Source of the DNA: Candidatus Saccharimonadota bacterium
GTDB lineage: Bacteria > Patescibacteriota > Saccharimonadia > Saccharimonadales > DTSZ01
Reading direction: 5' to 3'
Assembly (NCBI GenBank): GCA_012965045.1
Contig: DTSZ01000001.1
Coordinates: 220,937 to 284,936, forward strand
DNA: 64,000 nt
Position 1 is the first letter of the stretch, and each line of letters begins with the position of its first letter. The notes under the pieces are model-generated. The model made no database searches and had not been told where the DNA came from. It saw nothing but the letters and a program-made list of their open reading frames with translations. A program made the translations under genes and the position numbers. This document shows positions 2,468 to 52,495 of this stretch, piece after piece.

Positions 2468-3166
2468 TTAATAACCCAAATAAGGGTCGGCTATGATTCT
2501 TGACTTCTTAACGCCAAAGCCCTTGATAGTTTTGCTAAGGCTTTTGATCATAGAAGGTGCGCCAGAAATAAAGAAGTAGGCCTGAGAATCGTATTTTTTA
2601 TTCAATTCAGTCAGTTCGTTATTAACTTGTTTGCTGTCCTTAACATAGCTGACTGACAATTTTGGATTCGATTTTGCAGCGGTATCCAGCATTTCTTTAA
2701 ACAAATACTCCCCATCCGACGAGTAAATGACATGCACATCTGACTTGGTAGGGTCTTCTTGGTATTGTTTGACCATAGCTAAAATTGGGGTTATTCCAAT
2801 GCCGGCCGCAACCATAATTACTGGTGTAGTTTCATCTTGGCGGTAAAACCAGCCGAATGGCCCGCGCATTTTGACGTGGTCACCTTTTTTTAGTTTTTGT
2901 AGCTCTTGCTTAAAACTACTGCTTGGGGAGCTAATTTTTGTACCAATTCTTATCACACCCTCACTCGGTACGCTGGCTATACTAAAGGCCCTCCATTTTT
3001 TACCCTCAACATTTCGCCCGGGCATTGAAAAAACTGCATGCTCCCCTGGCCGCCAGGTTATGTCGCCTGCTGCCATTTCGACAACTAATTTGTCTTCTTG
3101 TTTCCAAACATCGACCACCTGTATATGGTGTGTATTTTTAAGTCCTTTAAAATCTGTTATTTTCAT
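2468..3166 (-). CDS. FAD/NAD(P)-binding oxidoreductase (ferredoxin-NADP reductase-like)
   Basis: RAFSIAS (RxYS FAD motif), MRGPFG, VMVAAGIGITPILAM (NAD(P)-binding glycine motif). 232 aa two-domain size. Confidence 0.7.
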   Translation of the reverse strand: MKITDFKGLKNTHHIQVVDVWKQEDKLVVEMAAGDITWRPGEHAVFSMPGRNVEGKKWRAFSIASVPSEGVIRIGTKISSPSSSFKQELQKLKKGDHVKMRGPFGWFYRQDETTPVIMVAAGIGITPILAMVKQYQEDPTKSDVHVIYSSDGEYLFKEMLDTAAKSNPKLSVSYVKDSKQVNNELTELNKKYDSQAYFFISGAPSMIKSLSKTIKGFGVKKSRIIADPYLGY

Positions 3167-3198
3167 TTATCAACCCTCCCTGGCTGGTTCAGTTATAC

Positions 3199-3441
3199 CT
3201 ATTGCTTGTCTGCGTCTTTTACTTGATTGCGAGTATGGTCAAGATTCTCGCTCATAGCCTGCATGTGCCGTTCAAATGACTCTGGCTTGGTTACAATTAA
3301 TCCATCACAGTTAGGATCAATAAACACTAAGAGCTTATCCCCTGACTTAATTTCAAGTGATTCGCGTGCGTCAGCAGGGACCACAATTTGACCACGATCG
3401 CCCACGGTAACCGTTCCGGCTAATTTAGGTAGTTTATTCAT
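3199..3441 (-). CDS. AbrB/MazE/SpoVT-family DNA-binding protein
   Basis: 80 aa. N-terminal swapped-hairpin pattern TVGDRGQIVVPADARESLEIKSGDKLLVF. Confidence 0.7.
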   Translation of the reverse strand: MNKLPKLAGTVTVGDRGQIVVPADARESLEIKSGDKLLVFIDPNCDGLIVTKPESFERHMQAMSENLDHTRNQVKDADKQ

Positions 3442-3586
3442 TTCTCAACATCTCCCTAGTTGTGATTAGTCAGTGTATTCATACTTTTCATACATGTCAA
3501 ACAAAACGTACTAACGTCCTCTTGTCTATTCGGTTGTTCCAAAACTGTGTTAAAACAATAACCTAGTAACGTTAACTAAAGAAAAT

Positions 3587-6412
3587 CTAGACTCCTTCAA
3601 TAAAAGTTTCGATAAATCTGTTTAGCTTGGCGCTTACCCTATCTATTATCGATTGTCGTTTTAATACGCTTGGCTGTTGCGACAAAGTGTTAACGATGTC
3701 ATCGCCTCTTGGTTTGCGGCCACTATATAAATAATCTTCGATCAGTTCTTGTAGCTCTTCGGTCATTAAGCCTTCGTCATTAGCAATTTTTTCGAATGCC
3801 TTAGTCTTTTCGTCCGACCAAAATTTATCGAACCTACCTTCTACATCGTCTGCGTCAGATATTTCTGGAATGTGTGAGTTTATAAACTTTTCTATTAGCT
3901 CGCGTTTGCTCAACAGGGTTATTTCAGAGTTGATAATGCCAAGGATGTTCTTTTTAATTGCTTCCGCTTGTTCTGCGTTAGCGCTGACTAGCTTTGAAAG
4001 CAGTCGTATGATGTAGTCTACGTTTATGTCGTCGCGCCGGATTAGCTCCAGTTCGAAGTCCACATCTTCTAGTATCGATACCTTTTCTTTCTGGTAATCA
4101 GACTGTACCTTGCGATATATATCTAGGTATTTACTTTTGTAATCTTCAAACATTTGCTCGTTTATGGTGCTATCCGCAAAATCAAAGTCAGCAAAACTGT
4201 TTAAGATGTTGCGCAGGCGGATGATCTCGCGGAAGTGTTTTACAAACTCTAATTGCTGCTCTTCGCCAAATAGACTGTCTGCGTCTGGCGGGGTTGGGGT
4301 GAGCTGCTGCATCTCGCCGATTGAATCATTAAAATGCTTCAAATACACCTCGTATGGCTGCATAAAAATCGTTTCTTCGGCCTCTTTGTTGCTAAATAGC
4401 GCCACGGCGTCGTCTGTATATTTTTTAAGGTTACGGAAGCTAATAATGTTGCCCTGTGACTTCGCTTCACCATGGATCCTATTTGTTCTTGAATAGGCTT
4501 GGATTAGCCCGTGGTATCGTAGGTTCTTGTCTACGTAGAGAGTGTTCAAGGTCTTGCTGTCAAAACCAGTCAGAAACATGTTTACCACTAGCAAAATATC
4601 AATTTCGCGCTTTTTGACCTTGTCGGCCACATCACGGTAGTAGTTATAGAAGCTTTTGCTGTCTTTTGTTGTGTAGTTACTGCCAAACATCTGGTTATAG
4701 TCAGCTATGTAGCTTTCTAGCCTGTCGCGGCTGTGCTTATCTAGTGATCCCAACGAAAGTTGCAGACCACCATCATCTGCTAGCAACTCAGACACTTTGT
4801 CGTCTTCGTTTGCTGTGTAACTGAATATGGTGGCAATTTTTAATTGGCGCTCACGGCCTGCCTGCTGCTGTTTAAAAAGTTCATAATATTTACACAGGGT
4901 GTCTACGTTACTTATAGCAAATATGGCATTAAAATCCCGTGAGTGCGTTTTGCGGTCGTGATTAGCTATTATGTAGTCGACTATTTTTTCTAAACGTTTA
5001 GGCGACTCCATTAGCTCTTTGGTGTCTATGGCTTCTACCTCTATGTCTTGTTCGTTGGCGCTGTCTTTGCGCTTATAACGCCCTACGTACTCCACGCTAA
5101 ACTTTAGTACGTTTTCGTCATTTATGGCATCTGTTATGACGTATTTGTGCAAGCATTCGCCAAACAGGTCTTTGGTAGTCTTTTTAAAGCCTATGCTGCC
5201 ACTAGCGTTATCTTTAAATATCGGCGTGCCGGTAAAGCCAAACAGCTGTTTGTTGCTAAAGTATTCCACAATCCGTTGATGAGTTTCGCCAAATTGGCTG
5301 CGATGGCACTCGTCAAAAATAAATACAATCTTTTCGTCTTTGTGTTTGTTCATTTTTAGCAAGTGTTTGCCACCAGTTATTGCGTTGTTGAGCTTTTGGA
5401 TGGTGGTGACTATTAACTTTTGGTCTGGGTCGGCAAACTGTTTTACTAGTTGGCTGGTGTTGTCGGTGGCATCAACGCTGCCTTCTTTAAAGTTGTTGAA
5501 TTCTTTTATAGTCTGAGTGTCTAGGTCATTGCGGTCTACGCAAAAGACAACTTTGTAAATGTCTGGCAGGTCAACTAGTATTTGGCTGGCTTTAAACGAT
5601 GTTAGCGTTTTGCCAGACCCAGTGGTATGCCACACGTAACCGCCTTTACTGCTGTTTTGCACGCGGTCAACCAGCGCTTCTACAGCGTAATACTGGTAGG
5701 GGCGCAGTGCCATAAGAGTTTTAGTTTCGGCCAGCACTACGTACTTGGCTATCATTTTGCTAACGTGGCAGCGCTCTAAAAACTCTTGGGCAAATTCTTG
5801 CAGGTCGGTTATTTTTTGGTTGTCTTTATTTGTCCAGTAACTGGTGAATTTAAACGGAGCCTTTTTGTTATTGGCGTAGTATTTAGTGTTTACACCGTTG
5901 CTGATTACAAATAGTTGAACGTACTGGAACAACCCGTAAGATGAATCGTAGCTGTGTTTTTGGTAGCGCTGGGTTTGATTGTAGGCTTCTTTTAGCTCTA
6001 GGCCACGGCGTTTTAGTTCTATTTGCACCAGTGGCAGGCCGTTAATTAATAGCGTTACGTCGTAGCGGTTTTTGTAACTGCCCTGCATAGTTACCTGGTT
6101 TGTTACTTGGTACTGGTTTTGGCACCACTCTTTTTGGTTAAAGAACTCTACGTAGAAGTTTTTATTTTCCCTTTTAAGTACAAATTTATCGCGCAAGGTT
6201 TGAGCTTTATCAAACACATTGCCTTTGCTTAAGTGGTTTAATATTCTAGCAAATTCTTTTTCTGTAAAGGTTGTGTGGTTGTGTATTTCTAGCTGGGTTT
6301 TTAGGTTAGCCAGCAGATCTGCTTCGTCGCGAATAGTCACCCGTGCATACTTCATGCCTTGCAGCTGCTTGATTAGGTTGTTTTCTAGTGTTTGCTCAGA
6401 TTGGGTTGTCAT
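3587..6412 (-). CDS. hsdR: Type I restriction enzyme R subunit
   Basis: N-terminal nuclease-like DVTLLINGLPLVQIELKRRG. Helicase motifs WHTTGSGKT (I), FDECHRS (II), GFTGTPIF (III), QAYSRTNR (VI). 941 aa. Confidence 0.9.
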   Translation of the reverse strand: MTTQSEQTLENNLIKQLQGMKYARVTIRDEADLLANLKTQLEIHNHTTFTEKEFARILNHLSKGNVFDKAQTLRDKFVLKRENKNFYVEFFNQKEWCQNQYQVTNQVTMQGSYKNRYDVTLLINGLPLVQIELKRRGLELKEAYNQTQRYQKHSYDSSYGLFQYVQLFVISNGVNTKYYANNKKAPFKFTSYWTNKDNQKITDLQEFAQEFLERCHVSKMIAKYVVLAETKTLMALRPYQYYAVEALVDRVQNSSKGGYVWHTTGSGKTLTSFKASQILVDLPDIYKVVFCVDRNDLDTQTIKEFNNFKEGSVDATDNTSQLVKQFADPDQKLIVTTIQKLNNAITGGKHLLKMNKHKDEKIVFIFDECHRSQFGETHQRIVEYFSNKQLFGFTGTPIFKDNASGSIGFKKTTKDLFGECLHKYVITDAINDENVLKFSVEYVGRYKRKDSANEQDIEVEAIDTKELMESPKRLEKIVDYIIANHDRKTHSRDFNAIFAISNVDTLCKYYELFKQQQAGRERQLKIATIFSYTANEDDKVSELLADDGGLQLSLGSLDKHSRDRLESYIADYNQMFGSNYTTKDSKSFYNYYRDVADKVKKREIDILLVVNMFLTGFDSKTLNTLYVDKNLRYHGLIQAYSRTNRIHGEAKSQGNIISFRNLKKYTDDAVALFSNKEAEETIFMQPYEVYLKHFNDSIGEMQQLTPTPPDADSLFGEEQQLEFVKHFREIIRLRNILNSFADFDFADSTINEQMFEDYKSKYLDIYRKVQSDYQKEKVSILEDVDFELELIRRDDINVDYIIRLLSKLVSANAEQAEAIKKNILGIINSEITLLSKRELIEKFINSHIPEISDADDVEGRFDKFWSDEKTKAFEKIANDEGLMTEELQELIEDYLYSGRKPRGDDIVNTLSQQPSVLKRQSIIDRVSAKLNRFIETFIEGV

Positions 6413-6421
6413 AGAGTTTCT

Positions 6422-7981
6422 CTACATATCATAATGTGACCTTATCAGAGTTCCAAAATCCTCATCCTCTAGTAACTCTATTATGGATTCATTTTTACTT
6501 TCCTCTATGTCCTCAAAAGGTTTAAGGTTTATAAGGCTAAACTTATCCAGTTCTTTGATATCAATAGATGGTATTGGATCCCGTGCACTAAAGTTACGCG
6601 CATCAGGTGTTGAAGGATTTGAGATCATTTTGAAGATGGCCATTTTATTACTGCGCAAAAAGGCGCTTGCGTAACCTTTTGCATTGTTCAACAAAATCAT
6701 ATAAAGCCATAAATTAAACAATGTGCTTTTTGTTTCTTTATAGTGGTTAACAATTCTATCTAAAATATCTTTAATATCAATATCCTCACGTACCATAACA
6801 GTTAAAATGTGATCTATAAGTGCAAAACCGTAAGTTCCATAAGATCTACCAGTATCTATCGATGTAACAATTCTGTTTATGGAAATTTCTCCCCATGTCG
6901 ACAATTGGGATACGACAAGTTCTTTCTTCCGAAAATGCTCAAGGATTTCACGATATGCATTGTCAAGATACCTTTTGTTTGTCGCATAAGTACAAGCATC
7001 AATAATATTTACAATATTTTCATAAAAAGCCTTACCGTTTATCTCTTTACTCTTAGGTTCGGTAACGCCATTAAATACCACACCTGCTATCTGCATGTTT
7101 GCTTCGTTACCATTCACGGCATTAGGTGTTGATATAGCTGATTTAGATTGACCGAGCACGAACCCGTAGGTATCGTTTAGTAGTGCTGCAAGTGCATCAA
7201 TAACACTGCGTGCGTCTGAGTGACTTTTACACAGAAACTTATAGTCGTCTCTATATCTGAGGGCAATGATGCCTTTTTTCTCAATGTATTTACTTAGCTG
7301 TGCGTCGATATCACTTAGTACAAGCTCAGATATAATATCGCTTACATATGTTCCGGTAGGGATTCCATTTGTTTGTCCATCATTTGCATTCTGAAATAGA
7401 CGATCTAGTCTGTTTCCAACTATTCTCTCACTTTTGTTATTTTTTGCAGTCTCTTTGCCCATAACTGCCCAAGCGATTGAATGCGTATATATTGAATTGT
7501 AAAAGTTTTGGATGTCGCATGTAGCTTGTACGGGGTGTGTTATTATCCAGCGGTCTGGCTCGATGGTATCAAAATGGTGCCAAGCACTTTCCTCGCTAGG
7601 AGGAGTCTGACCAAAAATAGGTACTGTAAAAACGCTCACTTTGTTCTCTGATGATAGAAGGCTTCGTAATTCTGGCCAAAAATCTTTATGCGTCAACTCA
7701 TTGACGATTCGGATATATGCATAGGGGTGTAGAAGTGAATATTCTCTCATGCCTTTGTTTGGCTTTTGCCCGAGGAGTTTTATAGCTTTTGTCCGAGGTA
7801 TCTTAGGCTTTTTTAACCAATCAATAGTGGTAAGCGATATCGTGCTCAATCCTTCAGGCTTGATGATTCCCGGCAGAATGCCATTCTGAGAAAAATATCC
7901 ATTCTCTAGTAGGAATTGTCTTGCTTCTTTAGGCTTTGTGTTTCCAAGTATACTCCTTAGCTTATTACTATAATTACTCAT
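6422..7981 (-). CDS. reverse transcriptase, Abi/UG-like stand-alone type, embedded between hsdS and hsdR
   Basis: RT motif series in order: GMREYSLLHPYAYIRIVNEL, CDIQNFYNSIYTHSI, NGIPTGTYVSDIISELVLSDID, ALRYRDDYKFLC (YxDD box), LGQSKS. Followed by about 230 aa of unassigned, helical-looking C-terminus. ATGA overlap with the hsdS stop. Confidence 0.8.
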   Translation of the reverse strand: MSNYSNKLRSILGNTKPKEARQFLLENGYFSQNGILPGIIKPEGLSTISLTTIDWLKKPKIPRTKAIKLLGQKPNKGMREYSLLHPYAYIRIVNELTHKDFWPELRSLLSSENKVSVFTVPIFGQTPPSEESAWHHFDTIEPDRWIITHPVQATCDIQNFYNSIYTHSIAWAVMGKETAKNNKSERIVGNRLDRLFQNANDGQTNGIPTGTYVSDIISELVLSDIDAQLSKYIEKKGIIALRYRDDYKFLCKSHSDARSVIDALAALLNDTYGFVLGQSKSAISTPNAVNGNEANMQIAGVVFNGVTEPKSKEINGKAFYENIVNIIDACTYATNKRYLDNAYREILEHFRKKELVVSQLSTWGEISINRIVTSIDTGRSYGTYGFALIDHILTVMVREDIDIKDILDRIVNHYKETKSTLFNLWLYMILLNNAKGYASAFLRSNKMAIFKMISNPSTPDARNFSARDPIPSIDIKELDKFSLINLKPFEDIEESKNESIIELLEDEDFGTLIRSHYDM

Positions 7982-9207
7982 ACAAACATTTGCTGGAGGA
8001 GGGCTTTTTTGAATTGCTTGACTTGCTCCAGCTTCCTTTCCTCTCGCTTTATTTTCTCATCAATCCCGGTCAAAAACTCTGCAATTTTCTGCTGCTCTTC
8101 TTTGCCCGGTATCATAATTGTCATTTTGGCTAGCGCTTCATAACTTAGGGTATTGCGAACGCTGCCTTCGAATGAATGATGCATTTGTCTCATAAATTTA
8201 GCGCTACTAAACCAATCAAATAAAAACTTGTCTTTCACTTCAGCTTTAGCCGTGAATGTTACGTAGAGAGGGCTGACAATTGAGTCTTCTTCTTCAGATT
8301 TATATGCAAGCGAACCAACATCAATTCGTGACGGATTGTATGCGAACGTACCTTTTCTGATAACAAAGTAATTTGAAGTATTCTTGCTCGCGATATTTGC
8401 TCCCTCGAAATAGTCTGCCTGGGAGACGAACCCCTGTCTGTTACTTACGCTTTGTACATAACTTATTGCTTGGTATTTATTGCGAAGCTTATTTTTTACT
8501 AAAACACTTCCAAGTTTTTTCTCTTGCCAGGGTTCGGTGAAGCCGGGGAAGCGGAGTTCTTGGCTAAAGATTTTTTGCATTATTCCTTTTTTGTATTTTT
8601 CTAAAAGCTCTTTTTTGCGCTGCAAACCAGCAATCTTATCATCCACACCCTTTAAAAACCCTGCGATCTTTTGTTGTTCTAGGAGCGTAGGAAAAGCTAT
8701 GGGTGTAGCTTTGGCTTGCTCTATTGTGTAATGCTTAATTGTCCCAATATGAGAAATGCTGTTTAGATAACGTCTAAATTTTGGAGATGTGAAAAAAATA
8801 AACAGGAAGAATGGATTAAAATGGTCTGACTGTTTAGCCCAGAGCAGATCTGCGTCCTTAAAGTAAAGTGGTCTGTTCGACTTTACTAAATAAGGTATTC
8901 CTATTGAACCCCCACCCGTGATTAGTATGTCACCCTTTTTTATACTTCCACTTTTCAAAGTCAATTTTTCGAATAAAGCTTGCGATATGTAGGCTTTGAC
9001 GTTCACCTTCCTTTTAAATATGGCAACTACATCGCTTGATCTAAAGAACGGTACGCCGGACTTGGTCCACTCATTTTTGTGGACTCTGGAAGCTGATTTG
9101 ATCTCAAGTAAGTCCCCGAGCTTTTTTACATCCCACTCATCATTAAAGCCCGGGAATCTTAGTTTTGGTGTTTTATGATGTAAAATTTTGTTCATAGATA
9201 TGTTCAC
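7978..9207 (-). CDS. hsdS: Type I restriction enzyme S (specificity) subunit
   Basis: Two TRD halves, each opened by LRFPGF..W..KKLG. Two conserved coiled regions (LLEQQKIAGFLKGVDDKI..., EEQQKIAEFLTGIDEKI...). GTG at 9207; alternative ATG at 9195. Confidence 0.9.
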   Translation of the reverse strand: MNISMNKILHHKTPKLRFPGFNDEWDVKKLGDLLEIKSASRVHKNEWTKSGVPFFRSSDVVAIFKRKVNVKAYISQALFEKLTLKSGSIKKGDILITGGGSIGIPYLVKSNRPLYFKDADLLWAKQSDHFNPFFLFIFFTSPKFRRYLNSISHIGTIKHYTIEQAKATPIAFPTLLEQQKIAGFLKGVDDKIAGLQRKKELLEKYKKGIMQKIFSQELRFPGFTEPWQEKKLGSVLVKNKLRNKYQAISYVQSVSNRQGFVSQADYFEGANIASKNTSNYFVIRKGTFAYNPSRIDVGSLAYKSEEEDSIVSPLYVTFTAKAEVKDKFLFDWFSSAKFMRQMHHSFEGSVRNTLSYEALAKMTIMIPGKEEQQKIAEFLTGIDEKIKREERKLEQVKQFKKALLQQMFV

Positions 9208-10257
9208 CTAAAAGGGGATGTCGTTTACGTCTACTATTTCAGGCTTTCTAAGTATTAGCCTTGATTTTGGGTCTATCTCATATTTCTTGATATATTCTTG
9301 CTTAATCTTCTCCCAGTTATCACCAAGCACATAATCATCTTTTAATGTTGTAATTACAAGTTCAGTTAATGAAATGTTTTGTTCAGAGATTAGCCTGTAC
9401 AACGCGTCGTTACTAAGTCTTAGGGTGGAGCGTTCCGTATGGCGTATATCGTAGATATCATTGTTTAGCGTTTTTGATATGTTAAGCATTGCATCTAAGT
9501 GTGATTTAAGCTGTGATAATTTTTTCTCATTTGTCGGGGACTTAAGCAGTTTTTTTGATAATCTTTCCAGAATGCTTTCGATTGCTTTTGTTTTTTTGTT
9601 CTTAATGAAATCTGAGAATATTATATTTAGTATTTCTGCGCTTGTTTTTGAGCTACCAACATAATCTCCAGCGTCGTACAAATCGTAATAAATACTGATT
9701 TTTTGCCTGAGATCATCATCTTTAAGTATTGATTTTAAGGTTTTTAGAGTTTCGCCACTTTTTTTTGTAATTAGGTGTTCGATAATTCTAAAGTTCGACG
9801 CTTCTTCTTCAAAAATTAGGTTGAACCGGTTTATTACATCTTGACGCTTATCCTTCTGTGAGAACAGGATTGTTATTTCAGCCATGTCAAATAAATGATA
9901 ATCATCAAAGTATTCATATTTATCGTCTTCTGGGCCTGTAGACTTAACTTGGTGTTTAATAATCTTGAAATCATCAAACTGGAACGAGTCAGACATCTTA
10001 TATCCTAGTTCAGATAAAGAGAAACTATCAACTTTATTTGTGTCAAAGTAGATTTTTCCCTTTTTTTCATTTTCAAAAAGTATAAACCACTCAAGATAGT
10101 TATTGCTTGAGCTCAAATAACTAATTTCTGCAGCAATTCGGTTTCTAGTTTCGGCGTCTATTATCTCCCTTCGCCGTGCTCTAAACCTGCTGTACCTCAG
10201 CTCATTTACGAATGAACTATTTCTGTCTTGACGATTGCGCTTCGAAAATAATTTCAT
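9208..10257 (-). CDS. hypothetical protein embedded in the hsd operon (weak AbiJ N-terminal-domain-like opening)
   Basis: 349 aa, Lys/Asp/Ile-rich and AT-rich. The N-terminus MKLFSKRN...ETRNRIAAEI resembles the M..FS.R...LRNrlWn opening of AbiJ-NTD-type proteins. No catalytic motif recognised. Zero-nt gap to hsdS and ATGA overlap with the upstream gene. Confidence 0.6.
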   Translation of the reverse strand: MKLFSKRNRQDRNSSFVNELRYSRFRARRREIIDAETRNRIAAEISYLSSSNNYLEWFILFENEKKGKIYFDTNKVDSFSLSELGYKMSDSFQFDDFKIIKHQVKSTGPEDDKYEYFDDYHLFDMAEITILFSQKDKRQDVINRFNLIFEEEASNFRIIEHLITKKSGETLKTLKSILKDDDLRQKISIYYDLYDAGDYVGSSKTSAEILNIIFSDFIKNKKTKAIESILERLSKKLLKSPTNEKKLSQLKSHLDAMLNISKTLNNDIYDIRHTERSTLRLSNDALYRLISEQNISLTELVITTLKDDYVLGDNWEKIKQEYIKKYEIDPKSRLILRKPEIVDVNDIPF

Positions 10258-11090
10258 CTCTCGCCCTTTCGCATAACTTCGTCCATGCTTTGACCAGAGC
10301 TGTTCTTCCAGGTTGTCCAGGCATTTATGCTACGACCTGTCACAAAGTGCCCTGCAAGATTGGGCGACTTGAATGAAACATTGTCATTCAGTAGAGTGAT
10401 ATCACTTTGCGGGGTGCCATGTTTTGTAAGTAGTCTATTACGCTCTGTGAGTCTTTCGGGCCTACGCTGACGCCAGCTAGGTGCTACAGAATTATCAATC
10501 ATAGAGCCGGCTAATACTACGAATTTATCACCCCTAAACTGCGCTTTGGCTAGTGTTTTTTTGCTTTTTGCGTGCCAAATTGTCTCTTCTTGGTCGCTGC
10601 GCGAACTAAATATACTAAAACCTATAGATTCTGCAACTAGTGCAATGTCTTCTAGGATTGTTTCCATACTGTGAATTTTAAACTCGTGTATGTTGTTGCG
10701 TGCTGGAATAGTTTTATTTAAAACTTCCATAGCTGCCGTAGCTTGGGCTTTTTCTACGGCTAAAGATTCTAGATACTTTACGTCTGTTTTGCCTAAAGTA
10801 TTTGCACTAGATACAATTGCAACTGCCGTGTCCCAAAAATCTTTAGATTGGTCATGGTTTTTTATACGGTGAAAAAAGTTTTCGCTTTCGCCGATGTATA
10901 TTTGGTTATCGCCAGAATTAATAAGCAAGTATAGTGCTGGCTGCTTTAACTCTTTGCGGTCTTTTATATGATTTACTTTAATGCGTGGAACAACAAATGC
11001 TTTTATAGAGCTTTCGGACAGCTCTATAACCCGAACACCTTCTAGTGTTCCGTCTGGCAGATAGGTTTGAATTAGCCTAGGGTTATTCAT
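10254..11090 (-). CDS. GIY-YIG nuclease-domain protein with DUF4357-like C-terminus
   Basis: ALYLLINSGDNQIYIGESENFFHRIKNH...KDFWDTAVAIVS...VKYLESLAVEKA (GIY-YIG core). C-terminal FKSPNLAGHFVTGRSINAWTTWKN (DUF4357 pattern). Confidence 0.8.
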   Translation of the reverse strand: MNNPRLIQTYLPDGTLEGVRVIELSESSIKAFVVPRIKVNHIKDRKELKQPALYLLINSGDNQIYIGESENFFHRIKNHDQSKDFWDTAVAIVSSANTLGKTDVKYLESLAVEKAQATAAMEVLNKTIPARNNIHEFKIHSMETILEDIALVAESIGFSIFSSRSDQEETIWHAKSKKTLAKAQFRGDKFVVLAGSMIDNSVAPSWRQRRPERLTERNRLLTKHGTPQSDITLLNDNVSFKSPNLAGHFVTGRSINAWTTWKNSSGQSMDEVMRKGER

Positions 11091-11093
11091 AGT

Positions 11094-12653
11094 CTAAAAT
11101 GGCGCCTCGATACCGAGCTCCTTGCAATAGGCTGCAATTTTTTTATCTATCTCGCTCATATTGACATCTATCTTTTTTATTTCTGCCGTAACTTCTTTGA
11201 GGTCTATAGGCTCTTCTTCCTCGAAAGTGTCGACGTAGCGTGGAATGTTTAGGTTGTAATCGTTTTCTGCTATTTCACTTAGCTTGGCTACATGGCTGTA
11301 TTTGTCTTCTGATTTGCGGTCTTTATAAGTCTGCAAAATTTTGGAAATATCTTCTGGGCGTAGTTTGTTTTGGTTCTTGCCCTTTACGAAGTGTTGACTG
11401 GCATCTATAAATAAAACATCTTCTGGGTTTTCGCGGCACTTTTTAAAGATTAGAATGCAGGCAGGAATACTTGTGCCAAAAAAGAGGTTACTAGGCAGAC
11501 CAATAACAGCGTCTAAGTAGTTCTTTTCTTTTATAAGGTATTCGCGTATGTGGCCTTCTGCTGCTCCACGGAACAGGACACCATGTGGCATAACTACTGC
11601 CATAGTGCCGTTTTCGTCTAGCTGGTAAATCATATGCTGTATAAATGCATAGTCTGCCTTTGATTTAGGCGCTAACTTGCCGTACTGGCTGAAACGGTCA
11701 TCTTGAAGGTGTAGTGGGTTTGCAGACCATTTTGCACTAAATGGCGGATTGGCAACAACTGCCTCAAAGCGCATTTCTGCATGCTGAGGATGCTCTAAAG
11801 TGTCTTCTTGTTTTATGTTAAATCTGTCAAAACGGACATCGTGCAGAATCATGTTCATGCGAGCAAGGTTATAGGTAGTGTTGTTTAGCTCTTGCCCGTA
11901 GTAATTGCTAACTTCCTCTACTTGTCGGGCTACACGCAATAGTAGTGAGCCCGAGCCACACGTGGGGTCGTATACACTTTTTAGCTTTTTCTTACCGTTT
12001 GTAACTATTTGAGCCAAAATTTCCGATACCTCTTGAGGGGTATAAAATTCACCGGCTTTTTTGCCTGCTCCTGCAGCGAACTGGCTTATAAGGTATTCGT
12101 ACGCATCGCCCAATATATCTACTTTGGAATCTTCTAGGCGAAAATCAATCTTGTCTAGATGTAATAGGACTTTTGAAATAAGCTTTCCGCGGTCTACTAC
12201 AGTTTTACCTAATTTGCTTTGGTTTAGATCTAGCTCACTAAATAGCTGCTCAAAGTCTTCTTCGCTGTCTGTCCCCATGGTGCTATTTTCGATGTTGTTA
12301 AGTATGCGTTCCAAAATTTCTATAAGATCTTCTGGGTTAGTGCTGCCTTTTAAAGCAACGTGGTGAAAGAGATCTTTGGGCCTTAGGAAGTAACCAAGGT
12401 TTTCAACGGCATGCTCTTGAATGGCTACTACATACTCTTCGCCGCTATTAGTTGATTCATCAATATCTGTATATTTAATGCCATCCGCTTTTAATAGATC
12501 GTCTGCGTACAGCTCTATTTTTTCCGATAAATATTTGTAGAAAATAAAGCCTAGTATGTAGTCGCGGAACTGACTAGCATCCATGTTGCCGCGTAGGTCA
12601 TTTGCTATATTCCAAAGCTGCTTCTGTAATTCTTTTTTTTGATCTTCTGACAT
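11094..12653 (-). CDS. hsdM: Type I restriction enzyme M subunit (N6-adenine DNA methyltransferase)
   Basis: GEFYTPQEVSEIL, VYDPTCGSGSLLL (SAM motif I), VVANPPFS (motif IV NPPF). HsdM N-terminal helical domain. Confidence 0.95.
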   Translation of the reverse strand: MSEDQKKELQKQLWNIANDLRGNMDASQFRDYILGFIFYKYLSEKIELYADDLLKADGIKYTDIDESTNSGEEYVVAIQEHAVENLGYFLRPKDLFHHVALKGSTNPEDLIEILERILNNIENSTMGTDSEEDFEQLFSELDLNQSKLGKTVVDRGKLISKVLLHLDKIDFRLEDSKVDILGDAYEYLISQFAAGAGKKAGEFYTPQEVSEILAQIVTNGKKKLKSVYDPTCGSGSLLLRVARQVEEVSNYYGQELNNTTYNLARMNMILHDVRFDRFNIKQEDTLEHPQHAEMRFEAVVANPPFSAKWSANPLHLQDDRFSQYGKLAPKSKADYAFIQHMIYQLDENGTMAVVMPHGVLFRGAAEGHIREYLIKEKNYLDAVIGLPSNLFFGTSIPACILIFKKCRENPEDVLFIDASQHFVKGKNQNKLRPEDISKILQTYKDRKSEDKYSHVAKLSEIAENDYNLNIPRYVDTFEEEEPIDLKEVTAEIKKIDVNMSEIDKKIAAYCKELGIEAPF

Positions 12654-12773
12654 TTAGCCTCACTATCTGTTGATATTCTATCAAATTTAGTTGTACGGCG
12701 GCACTAGTAACGATTTGACTTAAAAAGTTATGAAATCCTTACACTAAGCCCAGAGCAAAACCCACACTATTCC

Positions 12774-13259
12774 CTACTTTTCTTTCGCCAACTCATTCTC
12801 AGTCACATCTGTCACCAGCGCCAAGTAAAGGATTCTGTAATTATAAATAACGTCGTGTTCTTTTATTAATACTGAGTACGCAAAAAATACAATATGGTAG
12901 ATGACAATCCCTAGTAGATAGTACGGATAGTATTTAAAAAATATTAATCCCGGCAATAGCCCATAGTAGACATATAAATATGTCACTAACTTAGTGAAAC
13001 TGTTCCAGTAGCTGGTAAATTTTTCTTGAGCAAATGGTTTAACTAATTGGTGCCGGTACAAGTGGTCTGCATAAGTAATGGTATATTTATTTTCTAGCCT
13101 TATAACTTCGTAAAAAGGTTCGTTTTGATGAAGGTCGAAAATTTCTTCGTATCTGTTGCGGTAGTTAAAGTGATAAAAAAGTATTAAAAAATAATGCCCC
13201 GCTCGCTTGGCAAGAAAATACGAAACTGCCAAGCCAGAAACGAACGCAACATACTCCAT
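12774..13259 (-). CDS. hypothetical membrane protein
   Basis: 161 aa, Tyr/Phe-rich, with several hydrophobic segments. No motif recognised. Confidence 0.5.
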   Translation of the reverse strand: MEYVAFVSGLAVSYFLAKRAGHYFLILFYHFNYRNRYEEIFDLHQNEPFYEVIRLENKYTITYADHLYRHQLVKPFAQEKFTSYWNSFTKLVTYLYVYYGLLPGLIFFKYYPYYLLGIVIYHIVFFAYSVLIKEHDVIYNYRILYLALVTDVTENELAKEK

Positions 13260-13354
13260 AGTTTAGTATTTTATCACCCAGACCTTATATAAAGGATGAT
13301 GCTAAAATAAAGCCATGGACGTCTACCTATTTAAAGATATAAAGGATTAAACTT

Positions 13355-13726
13355 GTGGAGACGGTAGCGTGGGTGCTTTGCACATTACTTATAGTTCAGA
13401 TAGTGTTTCAAGCCATGCTTGCTAGTGGAGCTCGCTTGGGCCATATTGCCTACGGCGGCAAACACAAAGGCACATTACCAAACAAGCTGCGCCTAATAAG
13501 TGCTGTTGCTGTGGTATTTTATGTTTTCTTTTTTAGCGTTGCGTTAACATATGCAACGGAAATGGTTATTTATCCGCAGCGACTTAACGGTGTAGTGCTG
13601 TGGGTAATGAGCGTATTTTTTGGACTTGGAATACTTGCTAATGCTGCTTCGCCCAGTAAGCCTGAACGATGGTGGGCGCTATACGCACTTGCAGCTTTTG
13701 TTTGCACGGTAGCTCTTTTGACCTAG
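13355..13726 (+). CDS. hypothetical membrane protein
   Basis: 123 aa with about 4 hydrophobic helices. Confidence 0.55.
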   Translation: METVAWVLCTLLIVQIVFQAMLASGARLGHIAYGGKHKGTLPNKLRLISAVAVVFYVFFFSVALTYATEMVIYPQRLNGVVLWVMSVFFGLGILANAASPSKPERWWALYALAAFVCTVALLT

Positions 13727-13889
13727 TTGGCTGTTTTCGATTATTACTTTTAAGTTGTATTTATTGGTTCTGTCCTTGATGACTGCCACCCCAAGGGCTT
13801 AGGTGTGAAATTGCCTACATCTTAGGAGTTATGCTAAAAACAGGTTATAATCTTTGATAATCCATTAAGTAAGCGAGGGAGAAGCAAAA

Positions 13890-14081
13890 ATGGTCACAGG
13901 ATACTGTGTTAAATGTAAAGAAAAAGGTGTTGAACTAACTGCACCAGAAGTTACAAAAACTGCTAAAGGTGGTTTCATGGCTAAAGGTAAGCACGCAAAG
14001 TGTGGCACTACCGTTTGTGCAATGATGTCAAAAGACAACGCTGAAAAAGCAGTCGCTGACGGAGCAACAAAGAGCTACTAA
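13890..14081 (+). CDS. small zinc-ribbon protein (DUF5679-like)
   Basis: 63 aa. CVKC ... CGTTVC Cys pairs. SD-like GAGGGAG upstream. Strong terminator immediately downstream. Confidence 0.6.
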   Translation: MVTGYCVKCKEKGVELTAPEVTKTAKGGFMAKGKHAKCGTTVCAMMSKDNAEKAVADGATKSY

Positions 14082-14105
14082 CATAACCTAATTGTAGCTA
14101 GAAAA

Positions 14106-14134
14106 TTAAAAAAAGCCCGTTTAGGGCTTTTTTT
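14106..14134. terminator. bidirectional rho-independent terminator
   Basis: AAAAAAAGCCC-GTTTA-GGGCTTTTTTT: GC stem 14115-14118/14124-14127, flanked by an A-run and a T-run. Confidence 0.75.
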
Positions 14135-14290
14135 GGTTTAAATACTCTTAATTCTTACCCAATGAAGATATGTGGCGGTGGTTTAGCTATTGTAGCCTTG
14201 ATTCGCTTTGTCTGTTGGCAGGTCAACAAGTCCTGTTCTGGCTGCGATGTACAGATCAGCGGCTTCACTGCCTACAATGCAAGGGCGAGC

Positions 14291-14569
14291 TTAAAGCAAG
14301 AATAACGCAGCTAAACCAACCCCTAAGCTATTGAACGCCAAGTCGGAAACTATGTTGATCCAGCCTTCGTGGCCGAATAATATACCGAATTTTCCAGCGA
14401 TTGGCGATATGACAAAAATTTCGAGTGGCTCCCAGGCGAACGTCATACAAAGGGCAATAAACGGCGTGTAGATATAGGCTAAGGCTGCCGAAGTAAGAAG
14501 ATGTACAAAACTCCAGATGTCTATTAACGAATTATTTCTTTTATTGTTTGATTTTGGGTTAGCGTGCAT
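14291..14569 (-). CDS. hypothetical membrane protein
   Basis: 92 aa, 3 hydrophobic segments. Confidence 0.5.
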   Translation of the reverse strand: MHANPKSNNKRNNSLIDIWSFVHLLTSAALAYIYTPFIALCMTFAWEPLEIFVISPIAGKFGILFGHEGWINIVSDLAFNSLGVGLAALFLL

Positions 14570-51440: not shown

Positions 51441-51516
51441 TGGCAGGGGTACCAGGACTTGAACCCGGCCTTTGGGTTTTGGAGACCCACGTGCTAGCCA
51501 CTGACACTATACCCCT
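51441..51516 (-). tRNA. tRNA-Trp (anticodon CCA), CCA end encoded
   Basis: Reverse complement AGGGGTA...TGGGT-CTCCAAA-ACCCA...TTCAAGT...TACCCCT-G-CCA folds as a cloverleaf. 76 nt. Confidence 0.9.
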
Positions 51517-51616
51517 ATTAGGCTAGTAGTTAGTATCTGGTATTTGGTAATTAGTATCAAGTAAAAATAGGCGCTCCTAGCGAAACACCTACTACTAACT
51601 GCAGAATACGAGCTTT

Positions 51617-51805
51617 TTAGACTTCGTTTCGTCCTAGATTCTTCTTTGTTTCTTTGTACAGCACGTGCTTACGAGCTACTGGATCGTATTTCTTAAGCTC
51701 AATAGGCTCTTGTGTGTTCTGAGTGTTACGTTTTGTAACATAGGTACGATGCCCCGTCTCGGTGCTAACAAGTCCAAATAGTTTTCGTTTACCTTTTTTT
51801 GCCAT
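51617..51805 (-). CDS. rpmG: 50S ribosomal protein L33
   Basis: 62 aa. [11 protein letters not shown]...[17 protein letters not shown] pattern. Confidence 0.9.
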
Positions 51806-51909
51806 TATATTCCTCTTTCGGTGTGTAACTTTAACAGATTAGGTTCACTTAATCAATCATTCTAGGCTTGCTTTGTATAAAACTAATTGATTGTCATGAT
51901 GGATTAGAG

Positions 51910-52200
51910 TCATAGTTCTCTTTCTAACCTGCGGTAATAAGCGCGATCATAATAGATGTTTGCAATTTGTAGACAAAAACAACCAATATATATCGGAAGC
52001 ATTATGGTCCCCACATTTGGATTTAATAATAGATCGAGGATAATATACATAAATCCGAAAAAGACGATGTGAGCTTCTATAGATTTATACTTTGCAATGC
52101 GCGTTCGTAAAGCTAAGTCTGACTGCTGTGTTAATTCTACTATCGCTTGGACGATTAGCATTGGAGTAATAATTAAAAAACGTAATATTTTCATGTTCAA
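51910..52200 (-). CDS. hypothetical membrane protein
   Basis: 96 aa, 3 hydrophobic segments, AT-rich. Confidence 0.4.
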   Translation of the reverse strand: MNMKILRFLIITPMLIVQAIVELTQQSDLALRTRIAKYKSIEAHIVFFGFMYIILDLLLNPNVGTIMLPIYIGCFCLQIANIYYDRAYYRRLEREL

Positions 52201-52205
52201 TCTTA

Positions 52206-52280
52206 TGGAGCCGCGACCGGGATTTGAACCCGGGGCCCCTTCCTTACCATGGAAGTGCTCTACCCCTGAGCTATCGCGGC
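52206..52280 (-). tRNA. tRNA-Thr (anticodon GGT), CCA end encoded
   Basis: Reverse complement GCCGCGA TAGCTCAGGGGTAGAGC ACTTCC-ATGGTAA-GGAAG ... GGTTCAAATCC ... TCGCGGC-T-CCA. Confidence 0.9.
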
Positions 52281-52308
52281 ATGTTTATTGATTATAGATT
52301 AATAAATT

Positions 52309-52327
52309 AAAAAAGCCCACATGGGCT
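52309..52327 (-). terminator. short terminator-like hairpin between tRNA-Tyr and tRNA-Thr(GGT)
   Basis: Minus strand reads (A)GCCC-AUGU-GGGC(U) followed by UUUUUU. Confidence 0.45.
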
Positions 52328-52330
52328 GCA

Positions 52331-52417
52331 TGGTGCTGGGAGCAGGATTCGAACCTGCGAAGGCACTAGGCCGACAGATTTACAGTCTGTTGCGTTTGAC
52401 CGCTTCGCTATCCCAGC
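52331..52417 (-). tRNA. tRNA-Tyr (anticodon GTA), long variable arm, CCA end encoded
   Basis: Reverse complement GCTGGGA TAGCGAAGCGGTCAAACGC A ACAGA-CTGTAAA-TCTGT CGGCCTAGTGCCTTCG CAGGTTCGAATCCTG TCCCAGC-A-CCA. 87 nt. Confidence 0.9.
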
Positions 52418-52418
52418 A

Positions 52419-52495
52419 TGGAGCCGCCTGTCGGATTCGAACCGACGACCCACGGTTTACAAAACCGTTGCTCTGACCAACTGAGCTAAGGCGGC
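52419..52495 (-). tRNA. tRNA-Thr (anticodon TGT), CCA end encoded
   Basis: Reverse complement GCCGCCT TAGCTCAGTTGGTCAGAGC A ACGGT-TTTGTAA-ACCGT ... GGTTCGAATCC ... AGGCGGC-T-CCA. Confidence 0.9.

Follow-up and report, generated by a model that had tools for sequence, protein, structure and literature searches.

A candidate abortive-infection polymerase of a rare lineage in a saccharibacterial type I restriction-modification operon

What is a reverse transcriptase doing between the specificity and the restriction genes of a type I restriction-modification (RM) system? The question is raised by a 64,000-nucleotide stretch of a Candidatus Saccharimonadota genome (contig DTSZ01000001.1; hereafter the window, meaning the whole stretch analysed), in which a gene for a reverse-transcriptase-like protein (RT) of 519 amino acids (aa) is packed between hsdS and hsdR. 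A first-pass annotation, made from the letters alone, had assigned the protein to the AbiA/AbiK/Abi-P2 class, had denied it a group II intron, retron or noncoding RNA (ncRNA) partner, and had proposed that it forms a distinct clade. We have found that the gene, as judged from its sequence and modelled fold, encodes a real and intact class 1 UG/Abi reverse-transcriptase-like polymerase, and that it represents a new, rare lineage, mostly associated with the Candidate Phyla Radiation (CPR), of an enzyme class that is already known. By analogy with the characterised members of that class, we put at roughly 70% the probability that the enzyme is an autonomous abortive-infection defence polymerase, carried as cargo in the RM operon.

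Identity and fold of the polymerase

The gene and the parts of its product lie as follows (window coordinates, here and below).

6422-7981, minus strand: RT gene, 519 aa, class 1 UG/Abi polymerase, stop codon 6422-6424 included (open reading frame list, PADLOC, AlphaFold2, Foldseek)
7112-7981, minus strand: RT fingers/palm domain, about aa 1-290 (RVT_1, invariant columns in 30- and 100-sequence alignments, AlphaFold2 secondary structure)
7244-7255, minus strand: catalytic YRDD box, aa 243-246 (translation; alignment columns)
6425-7111, minus strand: all-helical, alpha-Rep-like C-terminal domain, about aa 291-519 (AlphaFold2 helices, structural and profile alignments)

The open reading frame (ORF) begins with ATG and is read from the minus strand, a point that the first-pass annotation had left unstated; the plus-strand translation of the same interval is riddled with stops and noncoding. 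Its product carries all five motifs in the order previously read, GMREYSLLHPYAYIRIVNEL, CDIQNFYNSIYTHSI, NGIPTGTYVSDIISELVLSDID, ALRYRDDYKFLC and LGQSKS, and an identical protein is recorded at NCBI as 'TPA: RNA-directed DNA polymerase [Candidatus Saccharibacteria bacterium]'. Profile searches, which had been suggested as a check, recovered the RT fold. Pfam RVT_1 matched aa 153-292 with 35.1 bits, above its gathering score of 29.6, and the PADLOC models for RT_UG14, Drt6, AbiP2, Drt4 and AbiK matched with E-values of 1.1e-61, 3e-54, 3e-50, 1e-45 and 9e-43. The eleven top PADLOC matches (E 1e-61 to 5e-36) were all to stand-alone class 1 groups, namely UG14, Drt6, AbiP2, AbiK and five Drt4 models. 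Among structures of the Protein Data Bank (PDB), Abi-P2 was matched at E=5e-22 by the single sequence and at 2.3e-57 by a profile of 30 homologues (Abi-P2 residues 34-537), and the same profile placed DRT6, DRT4/UG15, Drt3b and AbiK next.

In the fingers/palm domain D156 (7514-7516), QTNGIPxG, YRDD and K280 were invariant in both the 30- and the 100-sequence alignments, and the catalytic residues D156, D245, D246 and K280 showed no variation across 113 aligned sequences. An AlphaFold2 model built with 100 homologues (pLDDT 92.9, pTM 0.92) has an N-terminal half of mixed alpha/beta structure and an all-helical C-terminal half, with helices at 291-514. When this model was compared with known structures by Foldseek, the whole-length template modelling (TM) scores were 0.69/0.73 for Abi-P2, 0.63/0.66 for DRT6, 0.61/0.59 for UG15/DRT4 and 0.56 for AbiK, each with a probability of 1.0. 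An alpha-Rep domain is the defining trait of class 1 UG/Abi RTs (PMC9226505) and stands in for the thumb in the solved structures (PMC12783706). Since the Foldseek alignment to the Abi polymerases extends over the full length, the helical C-terminus of about 230 aa is best read as this domain, and in the AlphaFold comparison proposed earlier the C-terminal half did align, with the rest of the protein, to the Abi-P2 and AbiK structures. An intact RT fingers/palm, a helical alpha-Rep domain replacing the thumb and an affinity to class 1 hidden Markov models (HMMs) are thus all found in the one protein, and the assignment to the AbiA/AbiK/Abi-P2 class was borne out by PADLOC, by the PDB profile and by the modelled fold.

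Weak cross-matches to the retron St85 model (47.7 bits) and to the group II RT/maturase model (45.2 bits) could be taken to mean that the gene is a retroelement RT, whether of a group II intron, a retron or another element, or else a decayed and catalytically dead remnant. We consider this exceedingly improbable. The scores of 45-48 bits lie far under the family cut-offs of 235 and 300 bits, a Pfam scan of the protein found no maturase X, En or integrase domain, and the flanks of the gene leave no space for msr/msd. Furthermore, the full-length gene is conserved among 30 homologues, its catalytic residues are intact and invariant, and its fold resembles the Abi polymerases rather than the intron RTs (TM of 0.35 for the group II intron RT). 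On the HMM scores, the missing domains, the fold and the failure to find an ncRNA, a group II intron or retron identity was therefore rejected, in agreement with the first-pass annotation.

A template-dependent system resembling class 2, as in DRT2/DRT9, would require an ncRNA, and one lying within a neighbouring coding sequence or elsewhere in the genome, acting in trans, would be beyond the reach of the tools used; the absence from this clade of the known priming tyrosines, described below, also speaks for such a system. Even so, it is very unlikely. Drt2 and Drt3a matched at 3.9e-08 and 1.3e-11, against 1e-40 to 1e-61 for class 1 models, and the retron, group II intron and class 2 DRT models gave 33-48 bits on the protein, well under their cut-offs. 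The alpha-Rep fold of class 1 is present, and TM scores for DRT2/DRT9 were merely 0.31-0.32. An Rfam scan of 2500-14500 returned no family at E<=1 except for a match to SNORD65 at 3369-3443, which was discarded as noise (E=0.49, with 22 bits where the gathering score is 41). Upstream of the RT start, 300 nt of sequence folded no better than shuffled controls (z=+0.48), and where relatives stand alone, in contexts unrelated to one another, the gap before the gene is only some 54-106 nt. In line with the earlier claim, then, no ncRNA was detected by these scans and the junctions leave no intergenic room for one, which is consistent with class 1, whose tested members need no template ncRNA.

A rare branch beside Abi-P2 and UG14

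The top PADLOC match was UG14, an uncharacterised class 1 RT that is predicted to be a defence gene (Mestre et al. 2022, PMC9226505), with 207 bits, followed by Drt6 with 183 and AbiP2 with 169. These values were calibrated with true members of the families: UG14 proteins reach 647-728 bits on the UG14 model, and Abi-P2 proteins reach 602-653 on the AbiP2 model and about 200 on that of UG14. Since a true Abi-P2 cross-matches UG14 at 203 bits, the 207 bits obtained here, like the two lower values, are at a cross-family level. None of 29 full-length relatives reached E<=1e-90 on any PADLOC model. In a neighbour-joining distance tree (222 RT-domain columns, 113 sequences, 100 bootstrap replicates), a phylogeny of the kind that had been proposed, the window RT fell in a 21-member clade of its own (bootstrap 99/100), separate from the Abi-P2 group, from an 11-member sister group and from UG14, which formed its own clade (80/100); the window clade and UG14 were grouped in 0/100 replicates. 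RT-domain identity of the window clade was about 34% to UG14 and 33% to Abi-P2, which are themselves about 31% identical, and about 27% to DRT4/DRT6. UG14 membership was thus rejected by the calibration and the tree, and Abi-P2 membership by a score of 169 bits, below the family level, and by the lack of the Tyr61 priming residue. By these measures the lineage appears as a small unnamed branch, about equally far from Abi-P2 and UG14.

The proposal of a distinct clade therefore stands, on the scores and the tree, but not for the reasons first given. The YRDD box had been regarded as a variant, and we found that its Arg (R244) is present in 40/40 Abi-P2-family sequences, including the crystallised Abi-P2, while UG14 has YKDD; as a clade marker it was rejected. 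Placement as an internal cistron of an hsd operon also fails as a sign of the clade, since Abi-P2-family loci are embedded in the same way (see the final section).

Abi-P2 of the Escherichia coli P2 prophage (PDB 7R08) is both the best structural match and the best PDB sequence match. It has the same RT plus helical-domain plan, a similar length, the RYRDDY box, the invariant Trp134 and the recurrent hsdS-hsdR placement. Its priming Tyr61 (P-x-Y, in the alpha2-alpha3 loop), in contrast, corresponds to Ile39 in the window RT, and it is found in proteobacterial prophages, whereas the hosts of the window lineage are mostly CPR/Patescibacteria. UG14 resembles the window RT in G-Y-F at residues 28-30, in Tyr118-type residues, in architecture and in size, but differs in its catalytic box, in having Phe and not Trp at position 134, and in its genomic context. 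DRT4 (UG15) and DRT6 (UG12) are likewise single-gene class 1 systems with an RT and an alpha-Rep domain (TM 0.61-0.63), but have YIDD and YVDD as catalytic boxes. AbiK of Lactococcus (PDB 7R06), the founding case of protein-primed untemplated synthesis, shares the two-domain plan; it lies further off (a single-sequence E of 9.6e-15), is longer (about 600 aa), and has its priming Tyr44 on a loop that could not be aligned.

A profile search of 1.84 billion cluster representatives (50% identity) returned 1,388 at E<=1e-30, of which about 20 were at clade level (>440 bits), so that the lineage must be called rare. The clade and its sister group occur mostly in Saccharibacteria and other CPR genomes: their hosts include five Saccharibacteria and one each of Parcubacteria, Kaiserbacteria and Paceibacterota, and, outside the CPR, one Bdellovibrionales and one Flavipsychrobacter metagenome-assembled genome. 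A metagenome scan added only three further members of the clade or sister group, and a scan of IMG/VR gave a single distant match; the contigs of two relatives (P0121 and P0123) are merely 2-3 kb long.

The 11 members of the sister group (P0023-P0033, for example at loci L012-L017), whose hosts are mostly Saccharibacteria, Kaiserbacteria and Paceibacterota, score about alike on the AbiP2 and UG14 models (260-280 bits) and retain a P-E-Y-Y motif that matches Tyr61 of Abi-P2. Because of these near-equal scores and the retained motif, we regard the group as intermediate between Abi-P2 and the window clade.

Proposed activity and the priming residue

Protein-primed, template-independent DNA synthesis is known for AbiK, Abi-P2, AbiA, DRT4 and DRT6 (PMC9508834, PMC11077055, PMC12783706). 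AbiK and Abi-P2 carry it out on a tyrosine of their own (PMC9508834), and DRT4 and DRT6 are oligomeric and make random single-stranded DNA (PMC12783706). The last two offer the best current mechanistic models: a hexamer whose product is normally removed by a host 3'-5' exonuclease until a phage single-stranded DNA-binding protein shields it, giving rise to toxicity and abortion of the infection (PMC12783706). By analogy with these relatives, the window RT probably has the activity of its class, untemplated and protein-primed DNA synthesis. It would form a trimer or hexamer, as do AbiK, Abi-P2, DRT4 and DRT6; the oligomer would start DNA synthesis on one of its own side chains, with neither template nor ncRNA, and would then extend single-stranded DNA of random sequence. 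Upon phage infection, the activity or its product would turn toxic, and the infection would be aborted. The tight or overlapping gene junctions would co-express the RT with the RM operon, and a second layer of defence would in this way travel with the first.

Three residues bear on the question of where such synthesis might be primed.

7865-7867, minus strand: Ile39, at the position of the Abi-P2 priming Tyr61 (profile alignment to 7r08; column statistics)
7580-7582, minus strand: invariant Trp134, aligned with the DRT4 priming Tyr125 or one residue from it (profile alignment to DRT4 chains; MAFFT column)
7895-7897, minus strand: Tyr29, in a GY motif at the end of helix alpha2 (invariant in 30/30 sequences)

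At the column of Tyr61, tyrosine was found in 38/40 Abi-P2 sequences and in 11/11 of the sister group, and in 0/20 of the window clade. The priming residue of DRT4 is Tyr125 (PMC12783706). A MAFFT alignment put this tyrosine one residue off Trp134, so that its aligned partner is either Trp134 or His135. Tyr29 is the sole invariant hydroxyl residue on the segment connecting alpha2 and alpha3 among 30 sequences, and was considered as the priming residue. This candidate was downgraded and is offered here only tentatively, because Abi-P2 has an equivalent tyrosine, Tyr53 (in SY), which does not prime there, the Y61F change alone being enough to abolish its activity. Since the priming sites differ among all three families in which they have been mapped, a fourth site would not be surprising.

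Cargo or guard in the hsdS-hsdR slot

The RT gene shares its operon with the following features.

11094-12653, minus strand: hsdM, type I RM methyltransferase, first cistron (Pfam N6_Mtase 1.8e-115, and HsdM_N)
10254-11090, minus strand: GIY-YIG and DUF4357 protein, 278 aa, second embedded cargo (PADLOC PDC-S14 4.8e-74; Pfam DUF4357, GIY-YIG)
9208-10257, minus strand: orf349, 349 aa, third embedded cargo (weak PADLOC PDC-S32 match, 3.7e-05)
7978-9207, minus strand: hsdS, type I RM specificity subunit (Pfam Methylase_S 1.7e-28, two stretches)
7978-7981, minus strand: ATGA overlap of the hsdS stop and the RT start, 4 nt (sequence)
6413-6421, minus strand: 9-nt spacer AGAAACTCT from the RT stop to the hsdR ATG (sequence)
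3587-6412, minus strand: hsdR, type I RM restriction subunit (Pfam HSDR_N, SWI2_SNF2, T1R_D3-like, EcoR124_C)

Six co-oriented cistrons thus follow one another in the order hsdM, GIY-YIG, orf349, hsdS, RT and hsdR, with the RT as the fifth, and their junctions (4-nt, 9-nt, 4-nt, 0-nt and 3-nt) never exceed 9 nt. The two flanks of the RT gene, an ATGA overlap and 9 nt, had been read exactly by the first-pass annotation, and the overlap suggests that hsdS and the RT are translationally coupled. Being co-oriented and nested in an otherwise complete type I RM system, the RT is an embedded gene in the sense of Payne et al. (2024). It is not the only one. The orf349 gene, for which no Pfam or NCBIfam family was matched, shares 4 nt with the GIY-YIG gene and directly adjoins hsdS, and the two may be a two-gene cassette; as the GIY-YIG protein matches PDC-S14, the operon holds at least two, and probably three, embedded cargo genes. 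A promoter and terminator scan of the operon found sites in numbers no higher than in shuffled sequence, and internal transcription units are therefore without evidence. The G+C content of the operon (0.37-0.43) is slightly below that of the sequence further along (0.42-0.47), and the flanking genes are ordinary chromosomal ones (radical SAM, CYTH, FAD/NAD oxidoreductase and a Crp-type regulator).

Two further features of the window were recorded. An ORF of 80 aa at 3199-3441 on the minus strand, about 145 nt downstream of hsdR, resembles antitoxins of the MazE/AbrB (SpoVT-AbrB) type (Pfam MazE_antitoxin 1.3e-08), and four clustered tRNA genes (Trp, Thr, Tyr, Thr) at 51441-52495 on the minus strand are unconnected with the RT.

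The arrangement recurs outside the window. In the locus (L005) of the closest relative (P0002, 41% identity), the RT occupies the same hsdS-RT-hsdR slot, overlapping hsdS by 4 nt and lying 7 nt from hsdR, and the operon is orthologous, with 65% identity in HsdR, 74% in the HsdM C-terminus and conserved regions common to the HsdS proteins; the cargo between hsdM and hsdS is different, two unrelated small ORFs (170 and 120 aa) being found in its place. A third clade member (P0008, locus L093) begins 4 nt after hsdS and is followed by a 268-aa ORF and the start of an hsdR. The context survey covered 163 unique loci of related RTs, including 57 of the Abi-P2 family and 84 of UG14. An RT was found between hsdM/S and hsdR in 10/57 Abi-P2-family loci but in 0/84 UG14 loci (Fisher p=7e-5). 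Of the Abi-P2-family loci whose flanks extend 3 kb or more to either side, 7/29 were embedded, and in 9/57 Abi-P2-family loci hsdS ended within 150 nt of the RT start. The 4-nt overlap of hsdS and RT is frequent among the embedded Abi-P2-family loci, and recurs in L005, L044 and L086. As the hsdS-RT-hsdR order is shared by the Abi-P2 family and this clade, it is no peculiarity of the window.

Embedded loci with true Abi-P2 members include L043, L044, L062, L086, L155, L165, L168 and L171, with the RT at about 7000-9600 in each, and come from Helicobacter, Verrucomicrobia, Chloracidobacterium and metagenomes. At L093 a large serine recombinase (1020-2321) lies about 1.5 kb upstream of the hsdS-RT pair, with a fragmentary hsdM match between them, which could reflect either a mobile element or an hsd locus that has been rearranged or is phase-variable.

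That independent defence genes can be nested in type I RM, BREX and DISARM operons has been published (Payne et al., bioRxiv 10.1101/2024.01.29.577857), and the PDC-S14 candidate was itself defined by the embedding criterion (bioRxiv 10.1101/2024.01.29.577857). Our literature searches found no description of Abi-P2-like RTs in the hsdS-hsdR slot, and the searched portion of the text of the supplements to Payne et al. contained no AbiP2, DRT or PDC-S14 strings. The best-known precedent is PrrC of EcoprrI, like the RT a co-oriented defence gene nested within the tight packing of a type I RM operon ('guilt-by-embedding', Payne et al. 2024), and reported almost exclusively from such operons (bioRxiv 10.1101/2024.01.29.577857). 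PrrC is an anticodon nuclease that the RM complex physically regulates; for the window RT a coupling of this kind is hypothetical.

The slot between hsdS and hsdR we take to be the position of PrrC in the prr locus, and the RT might likewise be a guard, held latent by HsdM/S/R or sensing them, with its untemplated DNA synthesis switched on once an anti-restriction factor of a phage disables or remodels the type I complex. The RT would then be wired to that complex, its place between hsdS and hsdR would serve a function and be no accident, and it would prime from a residue other than the tyrosines of Abi-P2 and DRT4. Both the identical slot in the orthologous operon, kept while the hsdM-hsdS cargo was swapped, and the placement of the third clade member are what such a guard would predict, as is the uneven embedding of Abi-P2-family and UG14 loci. 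We nevertheless hold a guard to be unlikely. About 11 of the 14 unique clade loci, and most Abi-P2 members, adjoin no hsd gene at all, and for Abi-P2, DRT4 and DRT6 a single cloned gene is enough to protect (PMC9226505, PMC12783706). Furthermore, the RT (41%) diverges faster than HsdR and HsdM (65-74%), as would be expected of arms-race cargo and not of a tightly co-evolving partner. Independent systems are also commonly embedded, and 96.7% of embedded genes are co-oriented (bioRxiv 10.1101/2024.01.29.577857). If the guard reading were true, the hsdS-RT-hsdR order, which this clade shares with between about a fifth and a quarter of the Abi-P2 loci, would mark a composite RM-plus-RT system not recognised before.

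An autonomous polymerase is favoured by the single-gene occurrence of its relatives, whose contexts are unrelated to one another and in several cases rich in defence genes. Elsewhere in the clade the RT neighbours a Dcm methylase and Vsr, lies downstream of type I RM genes plus GmrSD, has an SNF2 helicase on one side and a type III-like RM system on the other, is found near RhuM/SocA, or has surroundings unrelated to defence. At one of these loci (L092, RT at 2974-4509) the RT lies 9 nt downstream of a 948-aa SNF2/DEAD helicase. Next come an Ea47-like protein, an N6/N4 methyltransferase and a ResIII/RE_endonuc gene, so that the RT of this locus sits in a different, type III/DISARM-like defence cluster.

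Several points weigh against autonomy and protein priming. The slot was kept in the orthologous operon at just 41% RT identity, and it recurs in Abi-P2 loci, which could mean that the RT is not fully autonomous. The priming tyrosines of both Abi-P2 (Tyr61) and DRT4 (Tyr125) are replaced, by Ile39 and Trp134, and protein priming in the window RT is not something that sequence alone can demonstrate.

As an autonomous defence polymerase, the window RT would bring a rare, unnamed and mostly CPR lineage into the Abi polymerase class, whose synthesis is protein-primed and untemplated; the CPR are not mentioned in the main text of the 2022 classification of UG/Abi RTs (PMC9226505). Two leads follow from this work, neither of which alters the current picture of how Abi polymerases work. 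The first is the repeated nesting of RTs of the Abi-P2 kind, in contrast to those of UG14, between hsdS and hsdR. The second is that a clade without the mapped priming tyrosines of Abi-P2 and DRT4 may reveal flexibility in the priming site of this family of enzymes.

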